A stretch of DNA of 64,000 nucleotides from Candidatus Jordarchaeia archaeon (lineage in GTDB: Archaea > Asgardarchaeota > Jordiarchaeia > Jordiarchaeales > Jordiarchaeaceae), in contig JAHQXB010000063.1 of NCBI GenBank assembly GCA_029856435.1, forward strand, positions 7,609 through 71,608. Reading direction: 5' to 3'. The notes beneath the pieces are model-generated. The model did no database searches. It was not told where the DNA came from and saw only the letters and a list, made by a program, of their open reading frames with translations. This document shows, piece by piece, positions 2,718 to 43,306 of the stretch (the stretch's first letter is position 1; each line of letters starts with the position of its first letter). Both the position numbers and the translations under genes were made by a program.

Positions 2718-3425
2718 CTATTTCTGAAGGATAGCGAATTTTCCACAGGTGGGACATTTTCCATTCAGTCTGACGTAGGCTTTTATGCAGCCCTCATGGA
2801 AGAGAACCGAGCAAGATTCACACTTCCAAATTGCTACCACATTGTTAAGGACTGTTTTGCAAAGTCCGCAGATTCCGCTTTTGGGAAGCAGTAGAGGGCG
2901 CAGATAAGCGATAGATGCGAGGTTTAAAGCTTCTGCAAAGGGGCAATAGGTGTGGAAAACGCCTGAACCAGCTTGACAGCCTATTCCACCCAACTGCTTC
3001 CACTCGCTCTTAAGCTCAAATACGTTTCCGACGCGGGTAATAACCCAACAAGGTTCCTTACAAAATCTTGAAAAAATTTTTTTGTAGCCATTTAGGAATC
3101 CTCTTGAAATAGCTTGTGTTGTCGCTGCTAGTTCTTCATCACGAGAATTTCTGAATAAAACATCTCGATTCACGAGATGACCCAATTCGTGAGCCATAAC
3201 AGCAGCAACTTCATCTTCGCTCCATCCCCTCAATTTTTCACTTATAGTAATAAAATGTTCCCTCACAACGCTTTTCCTCCCTTTTCTCAACTCAACGGTT
3301 TTAACACTCGCAAGCATATCCTTCTTAAGTTCACCAAACTTGGTTTTGAATTTTTCATTTTTTAAATCAGGGAACGCAGGCAGCACCAAATTTCTCAGAA
3401 TCCATCCCAAATAATGCTCACTCAT
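2718..3425 (-). CDS. HExxH zinc metalloprotease domain (M48/HtpX-like motif) fused to a C-terminal C4HC3 RING-type zinc finger
   Basis: 235-aa ORF. The N-terminal half carries AHELGHLVNRD (HExxHxxxxD). The C-terminus is CGLC-x12-CESC-x4-H-x2-C-x10-CPTC. Confidence 0.7.
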   Translation of the reverse strand: MSEHYLGWILRNLVLPAFPDLKNEKFKTKFGELKKDMLASVKTVELRKGRKSVVREHFITISEKLRGWSEDEVAAVMAHELGHLVNRDVLFRNSRDEELAATTQAISRGFLNGYKKIFSRFCKEPCWVITRVGNVFELKSEWKQLGGIGCQAGSGVFHTYCPFAEALNLASIAYLRPLLLPKSGICGLCKTVLNNVVAIWKCESCSVLFHEGCIKAYVRLNGKCPTCGKFAILQK

Positions 3426-3515
3426 TAGAACAGCTCCCGAAGACCAAACAGATAAAAAGCAAATAAGAAAGGTAAAACAGCATTTAAAAAGAATTCCGAA
3501 TATACAATATAGACA

Positions 3516-3633
3516 TTCCAGTTAATTTTTCCTTTTCGCTTCCAGAAAATATGGTTTTTTTCCGCCTTTTTTGGGAAAGAAGCCTTAAATAACCCCGGGT
3601 TAAGGATAGGTTTAGGAAAAAATTAATGAGAAA
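3516..3633. repeat. Dispersed ~120-bp intergenic repeat, copy A (inverted relative to copy B at 43187-43306)
   Basis: By hand alignment, the reverse complement of 3516-3633 matches 43187-43306 apart from a few substitutions and 1-nt indels (tttctcattaattttttcctaaacct...ttaacc(c)ggggttatttaaggcttctttccc...ccatattttctggaagcgaaaaggaaaaa). Confidence 0.6.
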
Positions 3634-3719
3634 CTCTATAAATACAAGTAAATTCTGGAATTCAAAGCCATAAAAATTTCAGAGTTTATGGAGAGTTTGA
3701 GGGCAGAAGATGGTTAAAG

Positions 3720-4580
3720 ATGGGAGATATAGATTATTATAAGCGTTTAACATTAGAAGCTAAACTGATTAAACAAAAGTACAAGACACTTGGAACCGGC
3801 AGAGAAGGAAAACTCTCCAAATGGTCGGGCTACATCACAGTTAGAAATCGCCCCCTTTTTGTTTCAATTCAGATACCTGAAGATTTCCCTAACAAGCCAC
3901 CCCTCATAAAGGCCAGCGGTGTTCAAACTAATTTAAATGAGGAGTTAGGCGTTCTCAAAAATTGGAGACAAGAATACAACGTAACAGATGTTATAGACGC
4001 TCTGAGAAAATATTTAGAAGAAAAAATAGATGCAGATAAGACCACACCAAGGAGGCTGGCAGAAGAACTTCAAAGAATGATAGAAAATTCACATTTACTT
4101 ATGAGTAGATCCGAGTATGTGTCCATTAGACTCACGAGGGACACCTCCAGCCTAAGAGAATACAGATTAATGGTTGTATTCCTAAAATACTCAAAACCAA
4201 GACTTAATGGAAAAGTAATAAACATTAAACTAGTTCTCCCAGAAGAATTTCCAACGGTGAAACCAAGAATAGAAATATCCAGCGGCAAAGAAGAAATAGA
4301 TTTGAATTTGGAAAAATATTTAGAGAATCTACCGCCTATGAGGAATTGGACTCCGGATAAGCACCTATTTGAAGTTGCATTATCCATTTTAGAATTTTTT
4401 AGTAATTTTGCGATGGCAGTTTGCCCAATTTGCCTAAACAAAATTACTGCACAGGAATATGATAGCGCCATCAAATGTATAAACCCCAGATGCCGGAGCT
4501 TGTATCACAAAAATTGCTTCGAAGGCTGGATAAGACAAGGATACAAAAGAGAATGTGTGTTTTGTGACACACCAGTATAA
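3720..4580 (+). CDS. Putative E3 ligase: two UBC/RWD-like modules followed by a C4HC3 RING-type finger (FANCL-like architecture)
   Basis: 286-aa ORF. Two modules carry the UBC/RWD signature (IPEDFPNKPPLIKA and LPEEFPTVKPRIEI), neither with a catalytic Cys context. The C-terminus is CPIC-x14-C-x5-C-x4-H-x2-C-x13-CVFC. Confidence 0.6.
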   Translation: MGDIDYYKRLTLEAKLIKQKYKTLGTGREGKLSKWSGYITVRNRPLFVSIQIPEDFPNKPPLIKASGVQTNLNEELGVLKNWRQEYNVTDVIDALRKYLEEKIDADKTTPRRLAEELQRMIENSHLLMSRSEYVSIRLTRDTSSLREYRLMVVFLKYSKPRLNGKVINIKLVLPEEFPTVKPRIEISSGKEEIDLNLEKYLENLPPMRNWTPDKHLFEVALSILEFFSNFAMAVCPICLNKITAQEYDSAIKCINPRCRSLYHKNCFEGWIRQGYKRECVFCDTPV

Positions 4581-4613: not shown

Positions 4614-5765
4614 CTATTTTATGAAGTTTAACTTGAAGGTTTTAGGGGTGGCAAGATATTTTGATATTACAAATATATTTTCGCCAGACTTCAATCCAAC
4701 ATCCTTAAGCCTGAGTTCTTCCCCCAAGGGGAAGTGCTCCCTGTATGCTATTTCGGGGTCGGGAATGGCATATCTTTGGGAAATCTGTACTTTGATGTCA
4801 AAAACCGTAGCATTTGAATCCACGTTCATTTGCTGTGCTTCGTCTCCCAACCCGCAGAGCCAACAGTCAGCTCTTCGCGTCCGAGTCAAGCAATCGAGAC
4901 CCCCGCTGATTCCGTTATATCGAAACATCTCCACACTTCTAGGTAAGCCGAGCAAAACTTTTATTGCCTCTTGGGACTGAATCCCCGCTATTATGGCGTT
5001 CGTAGTTAGGATGGCTGGTAATTTTGGAGCTATCTTTTCCTGTATTTCTTTTGCGAGTTCCTCAGAAACTCCTGGAACTGAGACCAAGTTTTTAAGTTTG
5101 GCGTATTTTAGATCAAGCTCAGTCTTGTAGCCTCTTAAAAATAACTCTTCAACAATATCAAGTGTTAAACCTTTTATTCCGTACTTTTCCAACTCGTTGA
5201 ATAAATCGCGGGGCTTGCGTCTTCTCAAAGAACACCAAACTCTCTGCTTCTCTTTGGGAGGATAACACTCATAACAGGGAGTCACGTAAGGGATTATTAC
5301 ACGTACGTGACCAAAGAAACCATGTGTACCAGCATCAATAAAGGGTTTATTTAGAGACACCGCCACTGAGTTCAGATAACGGCGGCCTTCAAAATTATCC
5401 AAACTACTCAGAAAAATATCAGCTTTCCGATACACATCAATACTAATACACTCTATATTATCATAGTAAGATTCAACTTCTACGTTGGGATTCATTTCAG
5501 TCAAGTTACGTTTAGCAGCCACAACTTTGGGTGAACCGATATCCTGGTCTCTATACAACATTTGCCTACTTAGATTGGAGAGCTCCACAACATCATTATC
5601 TATTATAATTAATTTCCCAACACCCATAAGAATCAAATTTTTTGCCGATTCGCAACCCAGAGCACCCATACCCGCAATTAAAACAGTAGAATTCATCAGT
5701 TTATCCTGATTCCAAGCAACACCCATAACATTCACAAGTTTTTGTCTATGATAACGACCCTCCAT
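4614..5765 (-). CDS. Ubiquitin-activating E1-like enzyme (ThiF/MoeB/Uba family)
   Basis: 383-aa ORF. The nucleotide-binding motif is LIAGMGALGCESAKNLILMGVGKLIIIDNDVVELSNLSRQ. Two CxxC pairs are present (CYEC, CWLC). It is the last gene of the Ubl-E2-E1 string. Confidence 0.85.
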   Translation of the reverse strand: MEGRYHRQKLVNVMGVAWNQDKLMNSTVLIAGMGALGCESAKNLILMGVGKLIIIDNDVVELSNLSRQMLYRDQDIGSPKVVAAKRNLTEMNPNVEVESYYDNIECISIDVYRKADIFLSSLDNFEGRRYLNSVAVSLNKPFIDAGTHGFFGHVRVIIPYVTPCYECYPPKEKQRVWCSLRRRKPRDLFNELEKYGIKGLTLDIVEELFLRGYKTELDLKYAKLKNLVSVPGVSEELAKEIQEKIAPKLPAILTTNAIIAGIQSQEAIKVLLGLPRSVEMFRYNGISGGLDCLTRTRRADCWLCGLGDEAQQMNVDSNATVFDIKVQISQRYAIPDPEIAYREHFPLGEELRLKDVGLKSGENIFVISKYLATPKTFKLNFIK

Positions 5766-5794: not shown

Positions 5795-6214
5795 CTACCA
5801 ACCCTGGTTGGCGTAGTTTAGAACATATTCCCGGGCTATTTCAAGAAATTTTTGCGGTTCCCGTCTCTGCTGGTAAGCCGCCTGTGAATTAAGGGGATTA
5901 TCAGGGTTAGGATTGTTCAGCAGCGTCCTCAGAGCTTCTATAACCCCAACAATGTTTGTCTGTGGCTTCCACTCTCTCCCCAATATTGCTATACAAACCG
6001 AAAAAGGCGGCCGATCACCGAAAGCAATATTAGGATGCCATATCCGAGTGTGCCACAAAACTTCCGGTGGCTCAAAAGGAAAACGCCGAGTAATCTTAAT
6101 CTCAACCTTAAACATTCCCCCTTCGTAGGGGGAACCGGCGGAACCGTATATTATTCCGCGCCAATGAGTTAACTTACCATTCACCGAATGGAAGGTAGGC
6201 TCCTCCCTCCTCAT
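5795..6214 (-). CDS. Ubiquitin-conjugating E2 (UBC fold). The annotated ATG probably truncates the N-terminal helix (see finding).
   Basis: 139-aa ORF with WHPNI (HPN motif) and an active-site context FSVCIAIL. Also THWRGIIYGSAGSPYEGGMF, as in canonical E2s. Helix-1-like sequence (SERYWARLALEAQR) is encoded in frame upstream of the ATG but has no start codon. Confidence 0.85.
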   Translation of the reverse strand: MRREEPTFHSVNGKLTHWRGIIYGSAGSPYEGGMFKVEIKITRRFPFEPPEVLWHTRIWHPNIAFGDRPPFSVCIAILGREWKPQTNIVGVIEALRTLLNNPNPDNPLNSQAAYQQRREPQKFLEIAREYVLNYANQGW

Positions 6215-6367: not shown

Positions 6368-6613
6368 CTAGAAGCCACCTTCAATATCAGAACTGACATA
6401 GAATATTTTATCGCCATCTTGAACTCCAACACTTCCCAGAGGGGCATTATCATCTTGTAGTTCAATACCCCTACAGGTTAGGGTGAGAGCACTTGCTGGA
6501 ACTCCACATTGTTTAGCCACTCTCTCTTTCAGAGACTTCACACTTTCCTCTGGGTCTACCTCCATCTCAAAGGGGGCTTCCTGACCGATAGCAGGTACAA
6601 TTCGGATGAGCAT
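6368..6613 (-). CDS. Ubiquitin-like protein precursor (beta-grasp) with a C-terminal GG followed by one extra residue
   Basis: 81-aa ORF ending ...SSDIEGGF. It is ubiquitin-sized and is the first gene of the Ubl-E2-E1 string. Confidence 0.8.
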   Translation of the reverse strand: MLIRIVPAIGQEAPFEMEVDPEESVKSLKERVAKQCGVPASALTLTCRGIELQDDNAPLGSVGVQDGDKIFYVSSDIEGGF

Positions 6614-6947: not shown

Positions 6948-7637
6948 TTATTTGGTGAGCCAGCCATATTTTTTGTATGTTTTAATTCCTTCTTTTGATT
7001 TTAGGAATTGAATGAATTTTTTCGCCGTGTCTTTGTTTTTGCAGAAGGCGGTTGCTGCTATTAGGGTGCTTCTGTAAACTTGTGCTTCTCTGGGGATTTC
7101 AATTGCGTCGAATGTTTTGGGGTGTAGAGCTTTGTAGGTATTCCATCCGAATGCCACATCCACCTTTTTTCTGACTATGGAGCCTAGTAGTTCTCCGCAT
7201 CCATCGGCGAAAAGTGTTATGTTTTTTTGTATTTCTTGTGTTAGAGCAGTTTTGCTGGCTATTTCGTCCCAGACTCCCTTTAGACTGTCTACCGTAGATA
7301 TGGCGATTTTGATGTCTTTTTTTGTTAAATCATGGAGGGATCTTATTTTTTTGGGGTTACCTTTCTGTGTTAGGATTACTGATCTTCTGTAGCCTAGGAT
7401 GCTTCTGGTTTCTCTGTCTATTAAATTATTTTTTTGTAGTTCATCCATTATGTATGCTGCTCCACAGGTAAAAACGTCGCAGAGTCCAGTTTCGATTTTG
7501 GGAATTATTTCCGATGGCAGCCCTATGGTATATTTGAGTTCCACGCCACATATTTCTTGAAATCTTTTTCCAGAAATTTTTAGGGGGGTGGCAACATCAC
7601 AGCAAGAACAAATATTTAAAACCTGCTTCTGAGACAA
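6948..7637 (-). CDS. Periplasmic-binding-protein-fold protein (ModA/molybdate-tungstate-binding-like) without an obvious signal peptide
   Basis: 229-aa ORF. General resemblance to type-2 PBP/ModA proteins (DVFTCGAAY..., ILTQKGNPKKIRSLHDL, KIAIS, DVAFGWNTY). The assignment is by motif memory only. Confidence 0.45.
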   Translation of the reverse strand: MSQKQVLNICSCCDVATPLKISGKRFQEICGVELKYTIGLPSEIIPKIETGLCDVFTCGAAYIMDELQKNNLIDRETRSILGYRRSVILTQKGNPKKIRSLHDLTKKDIKIAISTVDSLKGVWDEIASKTALTQEIQKNITLFADGCGELLGSIVRKKVDVAFGWNTYKALHPKTFDAIEIPREAQVYRSTLIAATAFCKNKDTAKKFIQFLKSKEGIKTYKKYGWLTK

Positions 7638-7773: not shown

Positions 7774-8478
7774 GTGGCGCGTCCGCTTGGGATTGCTCGG
7801 TGGGGAAAACTTATGGTTGATGTTAGGATTTATCCTTTGACTCTTGCTAAGATTATTAGGCATAGTACAATGTTTTCGGGTATAGAAGTGGCAGGTGTTT
7901 TGATTGGGAGATTAGTGAATGGTGTAGTTGAGATTTCGGATTCGGATACCGGTCCGCAGATTGGTACAACGGGCCATGTGAAGCTGGCGAGATATGTGGC
8001 GCCACTCATTGCTGAGAAGCTTCACAGGCAGGGAAGAAGTGATTACATTGTTGGGTGGTATCACTCACACCCGGGATTTGGCTGTTTTCTTTCTCCAATT
8101 GATGTAGACACCCAATCAGGACTCCAGAAGATGTTTTCCAAATGCGTAGCGTTGGTCGTTGACCCTTATGAGTTCATTATTTCGGGTCGCCCACGTGATG
8201 CAAAAATCGAAATGTTTAGAGTTCAAGATGGTAGAATTGTTACACTGGAATATGAGGTTGTTTTTGAGACTGATAAGATTATCAGAAACTTTATTGATAA
8301 CCTAGAGAGAGGCGAGGATCAATACGTAACTTCTTTAGACAAGATTAGGTTAGAGTTTTATGAATGGAACAGAAAGTTGGAAGAAAAAGTAGGTTTTGTT
8401 ACTGAGGAAATCAAACAAATCCGTGAAGCACTGGCAAACATTCTTGAAGCACTAAAGCAAGGTAGACGAATATCATAA
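7774..8478 (+). CDS. JAB1/MPN+ (JAMM) metalloprotease, Rpn11/CSN5-like putative deubiquitinase or Ubl-processing enzyme
   Basis: JAMM motif: EVAGVLIG ... HSHPGFGCFLSPIDV (E, HxH-x7-S-x2-D). The C-terminal ~60 aa are coiled-coil-like. A more likely start is the ATG at 7813 (MVDVRIYP...). Confidence 0.85.
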   Translation: MARPLGIARWGKLMVDVRIYPLTLAKIIRHSTMFSGIEVAGVLIGRLVNGVVEISDSDTGPQIGTTGHVKLARYVAPLIAEKLHRQGRSDYIVGWYHSHPGFGCFLSPIDVDTQSGLQKMFSKCVALVVDPYEFIISGRPRDAKIEMFRVQDGRIVTLEYEVVFETDKIIRNFIDNLERGEDQYVTSLDKIRLEFYEWNRKLEEKVGFVTEEIKQIREALANILEALKQGRRIS

Positions 8479-43186: not shown

Positions 43187-43306
43187 TTTCTCATTAATTT
43201 TTTCCTAAACCTCTTCTTAACCGGGGTTATTTAAGGCTTCTTTCCCCAAAAAAAGGTGGAAAAAACCATATTTTCTGGAAGCGAAAAGGAAAAAATTTAG
43301 TTGGAA
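43187..43306. repeat. Dispersed ~120-bp intergenic repeat, copy B, with 11-nt inverted termini
   Basis: It matches the reverse complement of 3516-3633. The internal inverted termini are aattttttcct (43196-43206) and aggaaaaaatt (43287-43297). Confidence 0.6.

Follow-up and report, generated by a model that had tools for sequence, protein, structure and literature searches.

What does a gene do that joins a zinc-protease motif to a RING-type finger on one polypeptide, in the middle of an archaeal ubiquitin system? The question is raised by a 64,000-nucleotide stretch of a Candidatus Jordarchaeia archaeon genome (assembly GCA_029856435.1, contig JAHQXB010000063.1, positions 7,609 to 71,608 of the forward strand), which is referred to below as the window. 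An earlier note, made from the letters alone, had drawn attention to a single open reading frame (ORF) of 235 amino acids at window positions 2718–3425 (− strand), in which it read an M48/HtpX-like HExxHxxxxD metalloprotease followed by a C4HC3 finger, and which it placed inside a ubiquitin island and did not recognise as a described architecture. The analysis presented here, based on sequence comparison and a predicted structure, makes us lean towards a ubiquitin-coupled protease that carries a functional ubiquitin-ligase (E3) finger. Any one specific mechanism, whether activation in cis, marking of the cleaved substrate or the clearance of chromatin-bound proteins and DNA–protein crosslinks (DPCs), is held with much less confidence than that general statement.

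The protease-RING gene is one ORF of 235 codons plus stop, and it is uninterrupted, with a length of 235–248 residues, in eight genomes; it is therefore not two genes, and the reading of two genes as one was rejected on this ground. A search of 5.8 billion proteins retrieved seven full-length relatives with 73–100% identity, all from Jordarchaeia and named “M48 family metalloprotease” by NCBI. With the alignment of these close orthologues as query, the gene was found among GTDB species genomes in five species labelled Jordarchaeia or “Freyarchaeota”, and in no others. All putative metal ligands are invariant in the seven orthologues. The ratio of nonsynonymous to synonymous substitutions (dN/dS, calculated against the window copy by the Nei–Gojobori method) is 0.06–0.10 overall, with values of 0.10–0.16 for residues 1–107, 0.035–0.09 for residues 108–170 and 0.06–0.08 for residues 171–235, so low in each part that strong purifying selection must act on all three modules. 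A chance occurrence of HExxH was rejected in view of this selection, the invariant ligands and a Pfam M48 score above the gathering threshold. The protein is basic (isoelectric point 9.3, net charge +13), and no transmembrane (TM) segment was detected in it by Kyte–Doolittle hydropathy (19-residue maximum of 1.12).

The N-terminal module, residues 1–107 (3105–3425, −), is a minimal zincin core, as judged from profile matches and the predicted fold. An AlphaFold model computed on the seven close orthologues was usable in its RING part alone (predicted local distance difference test score (pLDDT) 52.7), whereas an alignment of 14 diverse members of the wider family described below gave a good model (pLDDT 82.4, predicted template-modelling score 0.80). 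In this model, a backing helix (residues 3–17), three strands (25–31, 39–48 and 51–62) and the HExxH helix (70–85), packed in a zincin-type core, are followed by the helices 94–107 and 111–121. The HExxH helix, mixed sheet and backing helix of the zincin (clan MA) fold are all present in the model, and the HExxH region does not form a non-protease helix pair, which the earlier note had named as a refuting outcome. The top Foldseek match in the PDB is the minigluzincin proabylysin (4JIU; probability 0.99, TM-score 0.61 on the target), with weaker matches to ZMPSTE24, ArdC and a “zincin-like” protein. A profile of residues 1–168 compared with PDB sequences likewise finds a minigluzincin best, MJ1213/selecase (expectation value (E) 0.0065, residues 2–92), and then HtpX (E 0.054) and proabylysin. 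The module has the size (about 100 residues), the solubility and the superposability on proabylysin and selecase that characterise the minigluzincin scaffold. Matches among predicted viral structures are predominantly SprT-like, the others being zincin, IrrE and M48 proteins; with a minigluzincin as the best PDB match and SprT-like proteins dominating the viral ones, the comparison with WLM/SprT proteases drawn earlier is reasonable at the level of the fold.

The zinc-binding and catalytic motif is H79-E-L-G-H83 (residues 79–83; 3177–3191, −), in which H79, E80 and H83 are invariant in the 14 relatives. The aspartate that would complete the HExxHxxxxD pattern, D88, is glycine in most orthologues; the conserved acidic residue is instead E98, and the pattern originally proposed is wrong in this detail. 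E98 belongs to the pair E97-E98 (3132–3137, −) of an HExxH-X13-EE motif whose spacer is shorter in some relatives. It is kept in at least 90% of the 14 relatives, at a fixed distance of 10 residues before the conserved R108-G-F, and lies on model helix 94–107, the one that follows the HExxH helix; no conserved histidine occurs between H83 and E98 in the 14 relatives. From conservation and the model we infer that H79, H83 and probably E98 hold the zinc ion, with E80 as the general base, and E98 as third ligand would probably make the protein a gluzincin. Peptidase_M48 is the only protease profile that passes its curated threshold in the window protein (residues 69–108, E 5e-7, 30.1 bits against a gathering threshold of 20.3), and this match spans just positions 61–100 of the 186 in the profile. 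The NCBIfam HtpX equivalogs score 13–18 bits against cut-offs of 245–422, and the Pfam SprT-like profile reaches 15.7 bits where 25.6 are required (best value in the family, E 4e-4). With D88 not conserved, no membrane helix and 40 of 186 M48 profile positions matched, the M48/HtpX-like label is not supported. In known minigluzincins the third zinc ligand is a histidine. Since the N-terminal half of the window protein has no conserved histidine there and does not match M48 over its full length, it is best described as the representative of a distinct, unnamed gluzincin family.

The core is followed by a family-specific, Cys-rich β subdomain, residues 108–168 (2922–3104, −), characterised by C122, C126, C150, H158 and C161-P162 and by its low dN/dS (0.035–0.09). 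In the model, residues 127–150 form a small β-rich region bordered by conserved cysteines. Residues 108–168 fall outside all Pfam and NCBIfam models, and the subdomain is newly defined here; its conserved residues suggest that it may bind zinc or act as a cysteine switch. A variable linker, residues 169–183 (2877–2921, −), connects it to the finger; pLDDT is below 50 at residues 170–179 and 33% of the linker columns are invariant among the orthologues.

The C-terminal module, residues 184–229 (2739–2876, −), is a C4HC3 finger with the ligand pattern C186-x2-C189-x12-C202-x2-C205-x4-H210-x2-C213-x10-C224-x2-C227, in the order that had been claimed for it. The Pfam zf-RING_2 profile matches residues 186–227 (E 1.7e-4; best value in the relatives, 4e-8). 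The model shows a compact finger at residues 183–227 with a cross-brace fold, which superposes on the RING-H2 domains of the E3s RNF165, RNF38 and EL5 (Foldseek probability 0.98–1.0, root mean squared deviation 1.2–2.5 Å). In the search led by proabylysin, these E3s and gp78 matched with 1.6–2.5 Å over about 50 columns, and RING E3 domains are the top-scoring finger matches in both PDB fold searches. Four positions outside the ligands are kept in all five lineages that carry the fusion: L188, between ligands 1 and 2; Y217, four residues after ligand 6; P225, directly after ligand 7; and a lysine one or two residues after ligand 8 (K229 in the window protein). Such hydrophobic, aromatic, proline and basic positions are those that contact the ubiquitin-conjugating enzyme (E2) in canonical RINGs. 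An E3-type RING rather than a PHD finger is the favoured assignment on sequence and model. The zincin fold and the cross-brace C4HC3 RING do sit on one chain, as the earlier note had proposed.

The wider family was delineated by an exhaustive HMMER search of 1.84 billion representatives clustered at 50% identity, which gave 27 matches at E ≤1e-3; a word-indexed protein search had returned the Jordarchaeia orthologues only, even with a diverse profile, and the distant relatives come from the exhaustive search. Four matches (P0008–P0011) are further full-length fusions with 30–36% identity to the window protein, one of which comes from Hodarchaeota and bears no annotation beyond “RING finger domain-containing protein”, the other three representing further lineages. 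Another seven are stand-alone proteins of 150–210 residues that align to residues 1–165 only, and the remaining matches cover the RING only. The fusion is rare, amounting to five 50%-identity clusters among the 1.84 billion representatives. In 14 relatives, down to 24% identity, H79, E80, H83, F118, C122, C150, C161 and P162 are invariant, and E98, R108, P125, G147 and also C126 are nearly so. Pfam profiles recognise M48 in eight of the 14 members, SprT-like in six and RING_2 in all seven fused ones. PADLOC gave no defence-system match for the window protein or for the relative P0029. Both halves belong to known superfamilies, and their fusion on one chain is undescribed as far as found: no description of a protease-RING architecture was met in the literature compared, which did not include the 2011 survey of prokaryotic RING fingers by Burroughs, Iyer and Aravind, and this agrees with what the earlier note had supposed. 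The labels “M48 family metalloprotease” and “RING finger domain-containing protein”, each of which names one half of the protein in public databases, are hereby corrected.

The gene does lie inside a ubiquitin island. Close to it are genes for ubiquitin (6368–6613, −; Pfam ubiquitin, 1e-11), E2 (5795–6214, −; UQ_con, 3e-32), the ubiquitin-activating enzyme E1 (4614–5765, −; ThiF, 1e-60), a JAMM/Rpn11-like deubiquitinase (7774–8478, +; JAB, 2e-17) and two other RING proteins. One of these is a convergent small RING protein of 74 residues (2466–2690, +; zf-RING_16, E 2e-6, above gathering). The other, encoded divergently, combines tandem UEV/RWD-like domains with a C4HC3 RING (3720–4580, +; RING_2, 1e-5; UQ_con, 2e-5; RWD, 1e-4; FANCL_C, 2e-4). 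Every Jordarchaeia locus has the same gene order: JAMM, a solute-binding protein, ubiquitin, E2 and E1, then the tandem-RWD-RING gene (opposite strand), the protease-RING gene, the small RING gene (opposite strand), an AAA ATPase and SMC. Downstream of SMC, related genomes have a pair of genes in the ScpA/ScpB position, of which one gives a weak Pfam match to SMC_ScpB. The AAA ATPase (964–2355, −; Pfam AAA, 7e-26) has one classical AAA domain and an N-terminal coiled coil, and its best PDB matches are to the D2 domain of p97/Cdc48 (3e-48). The start of SMC at 967 overlaps the AAA stop at 964–966, and the two genes are therefore taken to be translationally coupled. No matches were obtained in Rfam and tRNA scans of the window.

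Several features of this neighbourhood deserve to be recorded in their own right. The AAA-SMC operon (1–2355, −) directly abuts the ubiquitin island, an arrangement that is unexplained. The tandem-RWD-RING neighbour is FANCL-like in its layout and occupies the same position in all Jordarchaeia loci; RWD-like domains have previously been noted in Asgard archaea (PMC6601020), and a description of this protein was not found in the literature. The gene between ubiquitin and JAMM encodes a solute-binding protein of the periplasmic type (SBP_bac_11; 6948–7637, −), an odd but stable passenger that is conserved in all Jordarchaeia islands. Ubiquitin itself ends in …GGF in the window and in Freyrarchaeum, and in the mature form …GG in Jordarchaeum sp. 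(window 6368–6613, −; L001 4862–5107; L004 4866–5108), so the need for C-terminal processing varies between close relatives.

Beyond the Jordarchaeia loci, the protease module recurs beside ubiquitin-type genes. In Hodarchaeota, a JAB gene is found two genes upstream of the fusion. The protease P0029 belongs to a tightly packed metagenomic operon (L015 3043–9621) of a possible ubiquitin-like protein (Ubl), an E2-like protein, a JAB protein with a C-terminal TM segment, a ThiF-type E1, a TM protein with a C4HC3 RING-like finger, the protease itself, membrane and Cys-rich proteins and a HerA-like ATPase; its E2 and JAB calls are based on weak Pfam matches (E 0.05–0.08) together with motifs read by eye. 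The protease gene starts 5 nucleotides after the end of the RING gene, and this pair is a split version of the fusion. A second metagenomic operon of like plan (L022 2725–7528) runs from a Ubl through E2, JAB, a TM protein, E1, a TM-RING protein, an M50-like protease, a small TM protein and a winged helix-turn-helix protein to the protease P0017, its last gene. BLASTP of the window RING against the TM-RING protein of L015 was not significant, and PADLOC recognised generic E1 and HerA models only in the two operons. As a separate observation, the putative Ubls of L015 and L022 end in …KWA and …RWGA (L022), not in GG. Altogether, four separate settings link the protease module to E1, E2, JAB and RING genes; in one of them a RING gene directly adjoins it, and five lineages carry it fused to a RING. 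The best explanation is that archaeal-type Ubl-E2-JAB-E1-RING operons repeatedly include the module, which belongs to a family without a name, as an accessory.

These data suggest how the protein could work. It would be a soluble, catalytically competent minimal gluzincin with an M48/minigluzincin-like core, followed by the Cys-rich subdomain, a flexible linker and a RING E3, the protease module having become fused to a RING in Jordarchaeia, in Hodarchaeota and in a small number of other lineages. The RING would dock the charged E2~ubiquitin of the island. Ubiquitin might then be transferred onto the protease itself and activate it from a latent state, in the way that plant DA1 is switched on by RING E3s, or alternatively onto a protein held in the protease cleft; by either route, cleavage and ubiquitylation would be coupled on one polypeptide, much as yeast Wss1 unites a ligase-like with a protease activity. 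We infer, in short, an active but probably latent endopeptidase, with its own RING as the link between cleavage and ubiquitin transfer. Since the gene product is small and soluble and the genes for its cognate E1, E2 and ubiquitin are adjacent, in vitro tests of the idea are directly feasible.

A number of observations weigh against a ubiquitin-coupled protease with an E3 finger. The zf-RING_2 score of the window protein (22.2 bits) is below the gathering threshold of 27.3, the C4HC3 ligand order is common to PHD fingers and RING variants, and the structure model was built from 14 sequences only. The RING calls for the TM proteins of L015 and L022 are weak (Pfam E 0.007–0.05), and the best PDB match for their finger is a RING E3 at E 0.044. 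Furthermore, the fusion P0008, 36% identical to the window protein, lies outside any ubiquitin island, near genes for a histone, BacA, a PhoU-like protein and a tRNA endonuclease, and the fusion P0010 is found beside five VWA genes and a kinase (L010 352–7847). As for the stand-alone proteins, P0018 lies between two VWA genes (L008 4187–7444), P0012 is followed by a RimI-type acetyltransferase and P0015 is located among small unannotated genes. The VWA neighbourhood constitutes a second recurrent context, which the ubiquitin explanation does not account for. The adjacency of P0009 and P0012 to GNAT genes was considered as a lead and dropped, the two GNAT genes being dissimilar.

Four other explanations were considered. 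The first is a more specific version of the reading preferred here, in which the protein is a Wss1/SPRTN-like protease of chromatin or DPCs that binds nucleic acid through its basic protease core and Zn subdomain, works with the AAA ATPase and SMC-ScpAB, and uses its RING to add a ubiquitin mark. The fold kinship with minigluzincin and SprT-like proteases, the SprT-like Pfam matches in six of the 14 members and the basic character of the protein all fit this idea. As in the window protein, the protease core of SprT-type enzymes is immediately followed by a Cys-rich subdomain. The neighbouring genes point in the same direction: the AAA ATPase is p97/Cdc48 D2-like and overlaps SMC, the order protease-RING, small RING, AAA, SMC, ScpA/B is conserved in Jordarchaeia, one metatranscriptome contig covers both the protease-RING and the AAA gene, and the FANCL-like RWD-RWD-RING gene adjoins. 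However, the linkage to AAA and SMC is confined to Jordarchaeia, being absent at P0008, P0009, P0010, L015 and L022; the SprT-like scores are below gathering, and the third histidine of WLM/SprT enzymes is missing. The contigs, moreover, are strandless, and the protease-RING and AAA genes are separated by the small RING gene on the opposite strand. On balance we consider this explanation unlikely.

In a second explanation, the zincin would be a ubiquitin- or Ubl-specific peptidase that matures the C-terminus of its substrate or removes it from targets, and the RING would only tether it to the conjugation machinery. The ubiquitins that end in GGF need trimming, the Ubl of L022 ends in …RWGA, and zincin-like peptidases have been listed among the deubiquitinase superfamilies (PMC1779556). 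Nevertheless, a JAMM/JAB gene supported by Pfam is close by in three of the four ubiquitin-linked contexts, in the fourth (L015) a JAMM-type motif was recognised by eye in one gene, and in Caldiarchaeum JAMM performs both maturation and removal (PMC5654768). Jordarchaeum sp. keeps the fusion despite its mature …GG ubiquitin, and the isopeptidase activity reported for Wss1 was not reproduced (PMC4559962). Because of these three points, a dedicated ubiquitin peptidase appears improbable.

A third explanation holds that the finger is no E3 at all, but a PHD-like or structural binuclear zinc module for a protein or nucleic-acid partner, in a protease whose action does not depend on ubiquitin transfer. 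The PHD consensus accommodates the C4HC3 spacing too; the finger has weak Pfam matches to C1_1 (E 0.0012) and PHD (E 0.17), with RING_2 below gathering, and aspartate replaces the second cysteine in the fused relative P0011. RING models, on the other hand, outscore PHD by three orders of magnitude, the best fold matches are RING E3s, the E2-contact residues are conserved and the gene is linked to E1 and E2. PHD fingers, in addition, typically carry a tryptophan two residues before ligand 7, a position that is occupied by G222 in the window finger. We give a non-E3 finger little credence. Finally, an ordinary M48 quality-control protease of the HtpX/Ste24 type, as implied by the NCBI annotation of the orthologues and the above-gathering Pfam score, is very improbable, and a membrane M48 protease was rejected outright, given that the M48 profile matches only in part, the HtpX equivalogs fail, TM helices are missing, the probable glutamate ligand follows HExxH by 14 residues and not by tens, and the name ignores two additional modules, the Cys-rich subdomain and the RING.

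The gene is covered by contigs of two hot-spring metatranscriptomes from a strain of about 92% identity; these contigs are strandless, and both runs come from one study. The ends of two contigs coincide with 3426, a single base upstream of the ATG; a leaderless mRNA would produce such ends, but given these limits of the data they are suggestive only. One contig spans 1233–3426 and reaches into the AAA gene, and another ends at 3685, 35 nucleotides before the ATG of the tandem-RWD-RING gene at 3720. The contig ends make the divergent intergenic region between the two genes (3426–3719) the probable site of their promoters, and they are consistent with back-to-back starts of a leaderless protease-RING transcript and a short-leader RWD-RING transcript. 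The same region contains an element of about 108 bp with terminal inverted repeats of about 12 bp (TTAATTTTTTCC...GGAAAAAATTAA), present at 3526–3633 and, on the opposite strand, at 43187–43294, the two copies being 93.6% identical. Contig depth over 3470–3726 is 5–7 times that of the flanks in the two metatranscriptomes, with loose ends that enter unrelated sequence, and the RNA fold of the element is not unusual (z −0.86). These features suggest a multi-copy, transcribed element, similar to a miniature inverted-repeat transposable element, in the divergent promoter region of two RING genes.

With regard to the wider meaning, non-proteasomal, ubiquitin-dependent proteolysis, as carried out by DA1, Wss1, SPRTN and Ddi1, is regarded as a eukaryotic elaboration. 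The fusion and its unfused relatives in operons suggest that a site-specific protease may have been coupled to ubiquitin transfer before eukaryotes arose, and hint at prokaryotic counterparts of the ubiquitin-linked proteases of the DA1/Wss1 kind. In its boldest form, which we regard as speculative and doubtful as a whole, archaeal-type E1/E2/RING/JAMM systems would have the zincin family as an integral part, their fourth or fifth component; the Asgard E3 fusion would ubiquitylate itself, be activated by ubiquitin and work with the Cdc48-like AAA ATPase on chromatin-bound proteins, either SMC-associated or crosslinked to DNA. The DA1/Wss1/SPRTN logic, in which proteolysis depends on ubiquitin and bypasses the proteasome, would then have a counterpart, or even a forerunner, in prokaryotes.

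Among known systems, the M48 proteases HtpX, Ste24, Oma1 and BepA share with the window protein the HExxH motif and, probably, a downstream glutamate ligand of the gluzincin type, but they are embedded in the membrane, or periplasmic with tetratricopeptide repeats, whereas the window protein is soluble, has a far shorter ligand spacing and matches 40 profile positions. The minigluzincins (proabylysin 4JIU, projannalysin and selecase MJ1213) share with it a backing helix, a three-stranded sheet, an HExxH helix and a following helix, which in the window protein would bear the third ligand. Lopez-Pelegrin et al. (2013) reportedly described minigluzincins as latent zymogens blocked by their own C-terminal segments. 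The window family differs from them by its conserved glutamate (E98), the Cys-rich subdomain and, in some lineages, the RING, and the sequence similarity is marginal (E 0.0065). WLM/SprT proteases have a third histidine ligand and bind SUMO or ubiquitin through SUMO-interacting motifs or ubiquitin-binding zinc fingers, whereas the window protein lacks a conserved third histidine and carries a RING.

Wss1 and SPRTN resemble the window protein in their minigluzincin-like fold, and the minigluzincin is the scaffold that was used to model Wss1/Spartan (PMC4559962). Wss1 joins SUMO-ligase-like and latent protease activities, has a cysteine switch and works with Cdc48 (PMC4559962); the window protein joins a RING and a protease, has a cluster of conserved cysteines close to the helices of the active site, and its gene in Jordarchaeia has one for a Cdc48-like AAA ATPase as a near neighbour. 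In plants, the clan MA peptidase DA1, whose motif reads HEMMH-X15-EE, is activated by multiple mono-ubiquitylation from the RING E3s BB and DA2 and then cleaves both (PMC5322733). The window protein, with HELGH-X13-EE, shares with it the clan, the HExxH-X(13–15)-EE motif and the link to a RING. In DA1, however, the E3 acts in trans and the peptidase carries ubiquitin-interacting motifs and a LIM domain, whereas the RING of the window protein is in cis; between the two proteins no sequence homology was detectable, and no Pfam DA1-like match was obtained. Lastly, the operon of ubiquitin, E2, E1 and a small RING with Rpn11 known from Caldiarchaeum and Asgard archaea is a compact cassette of the same type, in which the small RING is a proven E3 (PMC5654768); the reconstituted Caldiarchaeum system has no zincin protease, whereas the Jordarchaeia island contains three RING proteins, one of which is the protease fusion.

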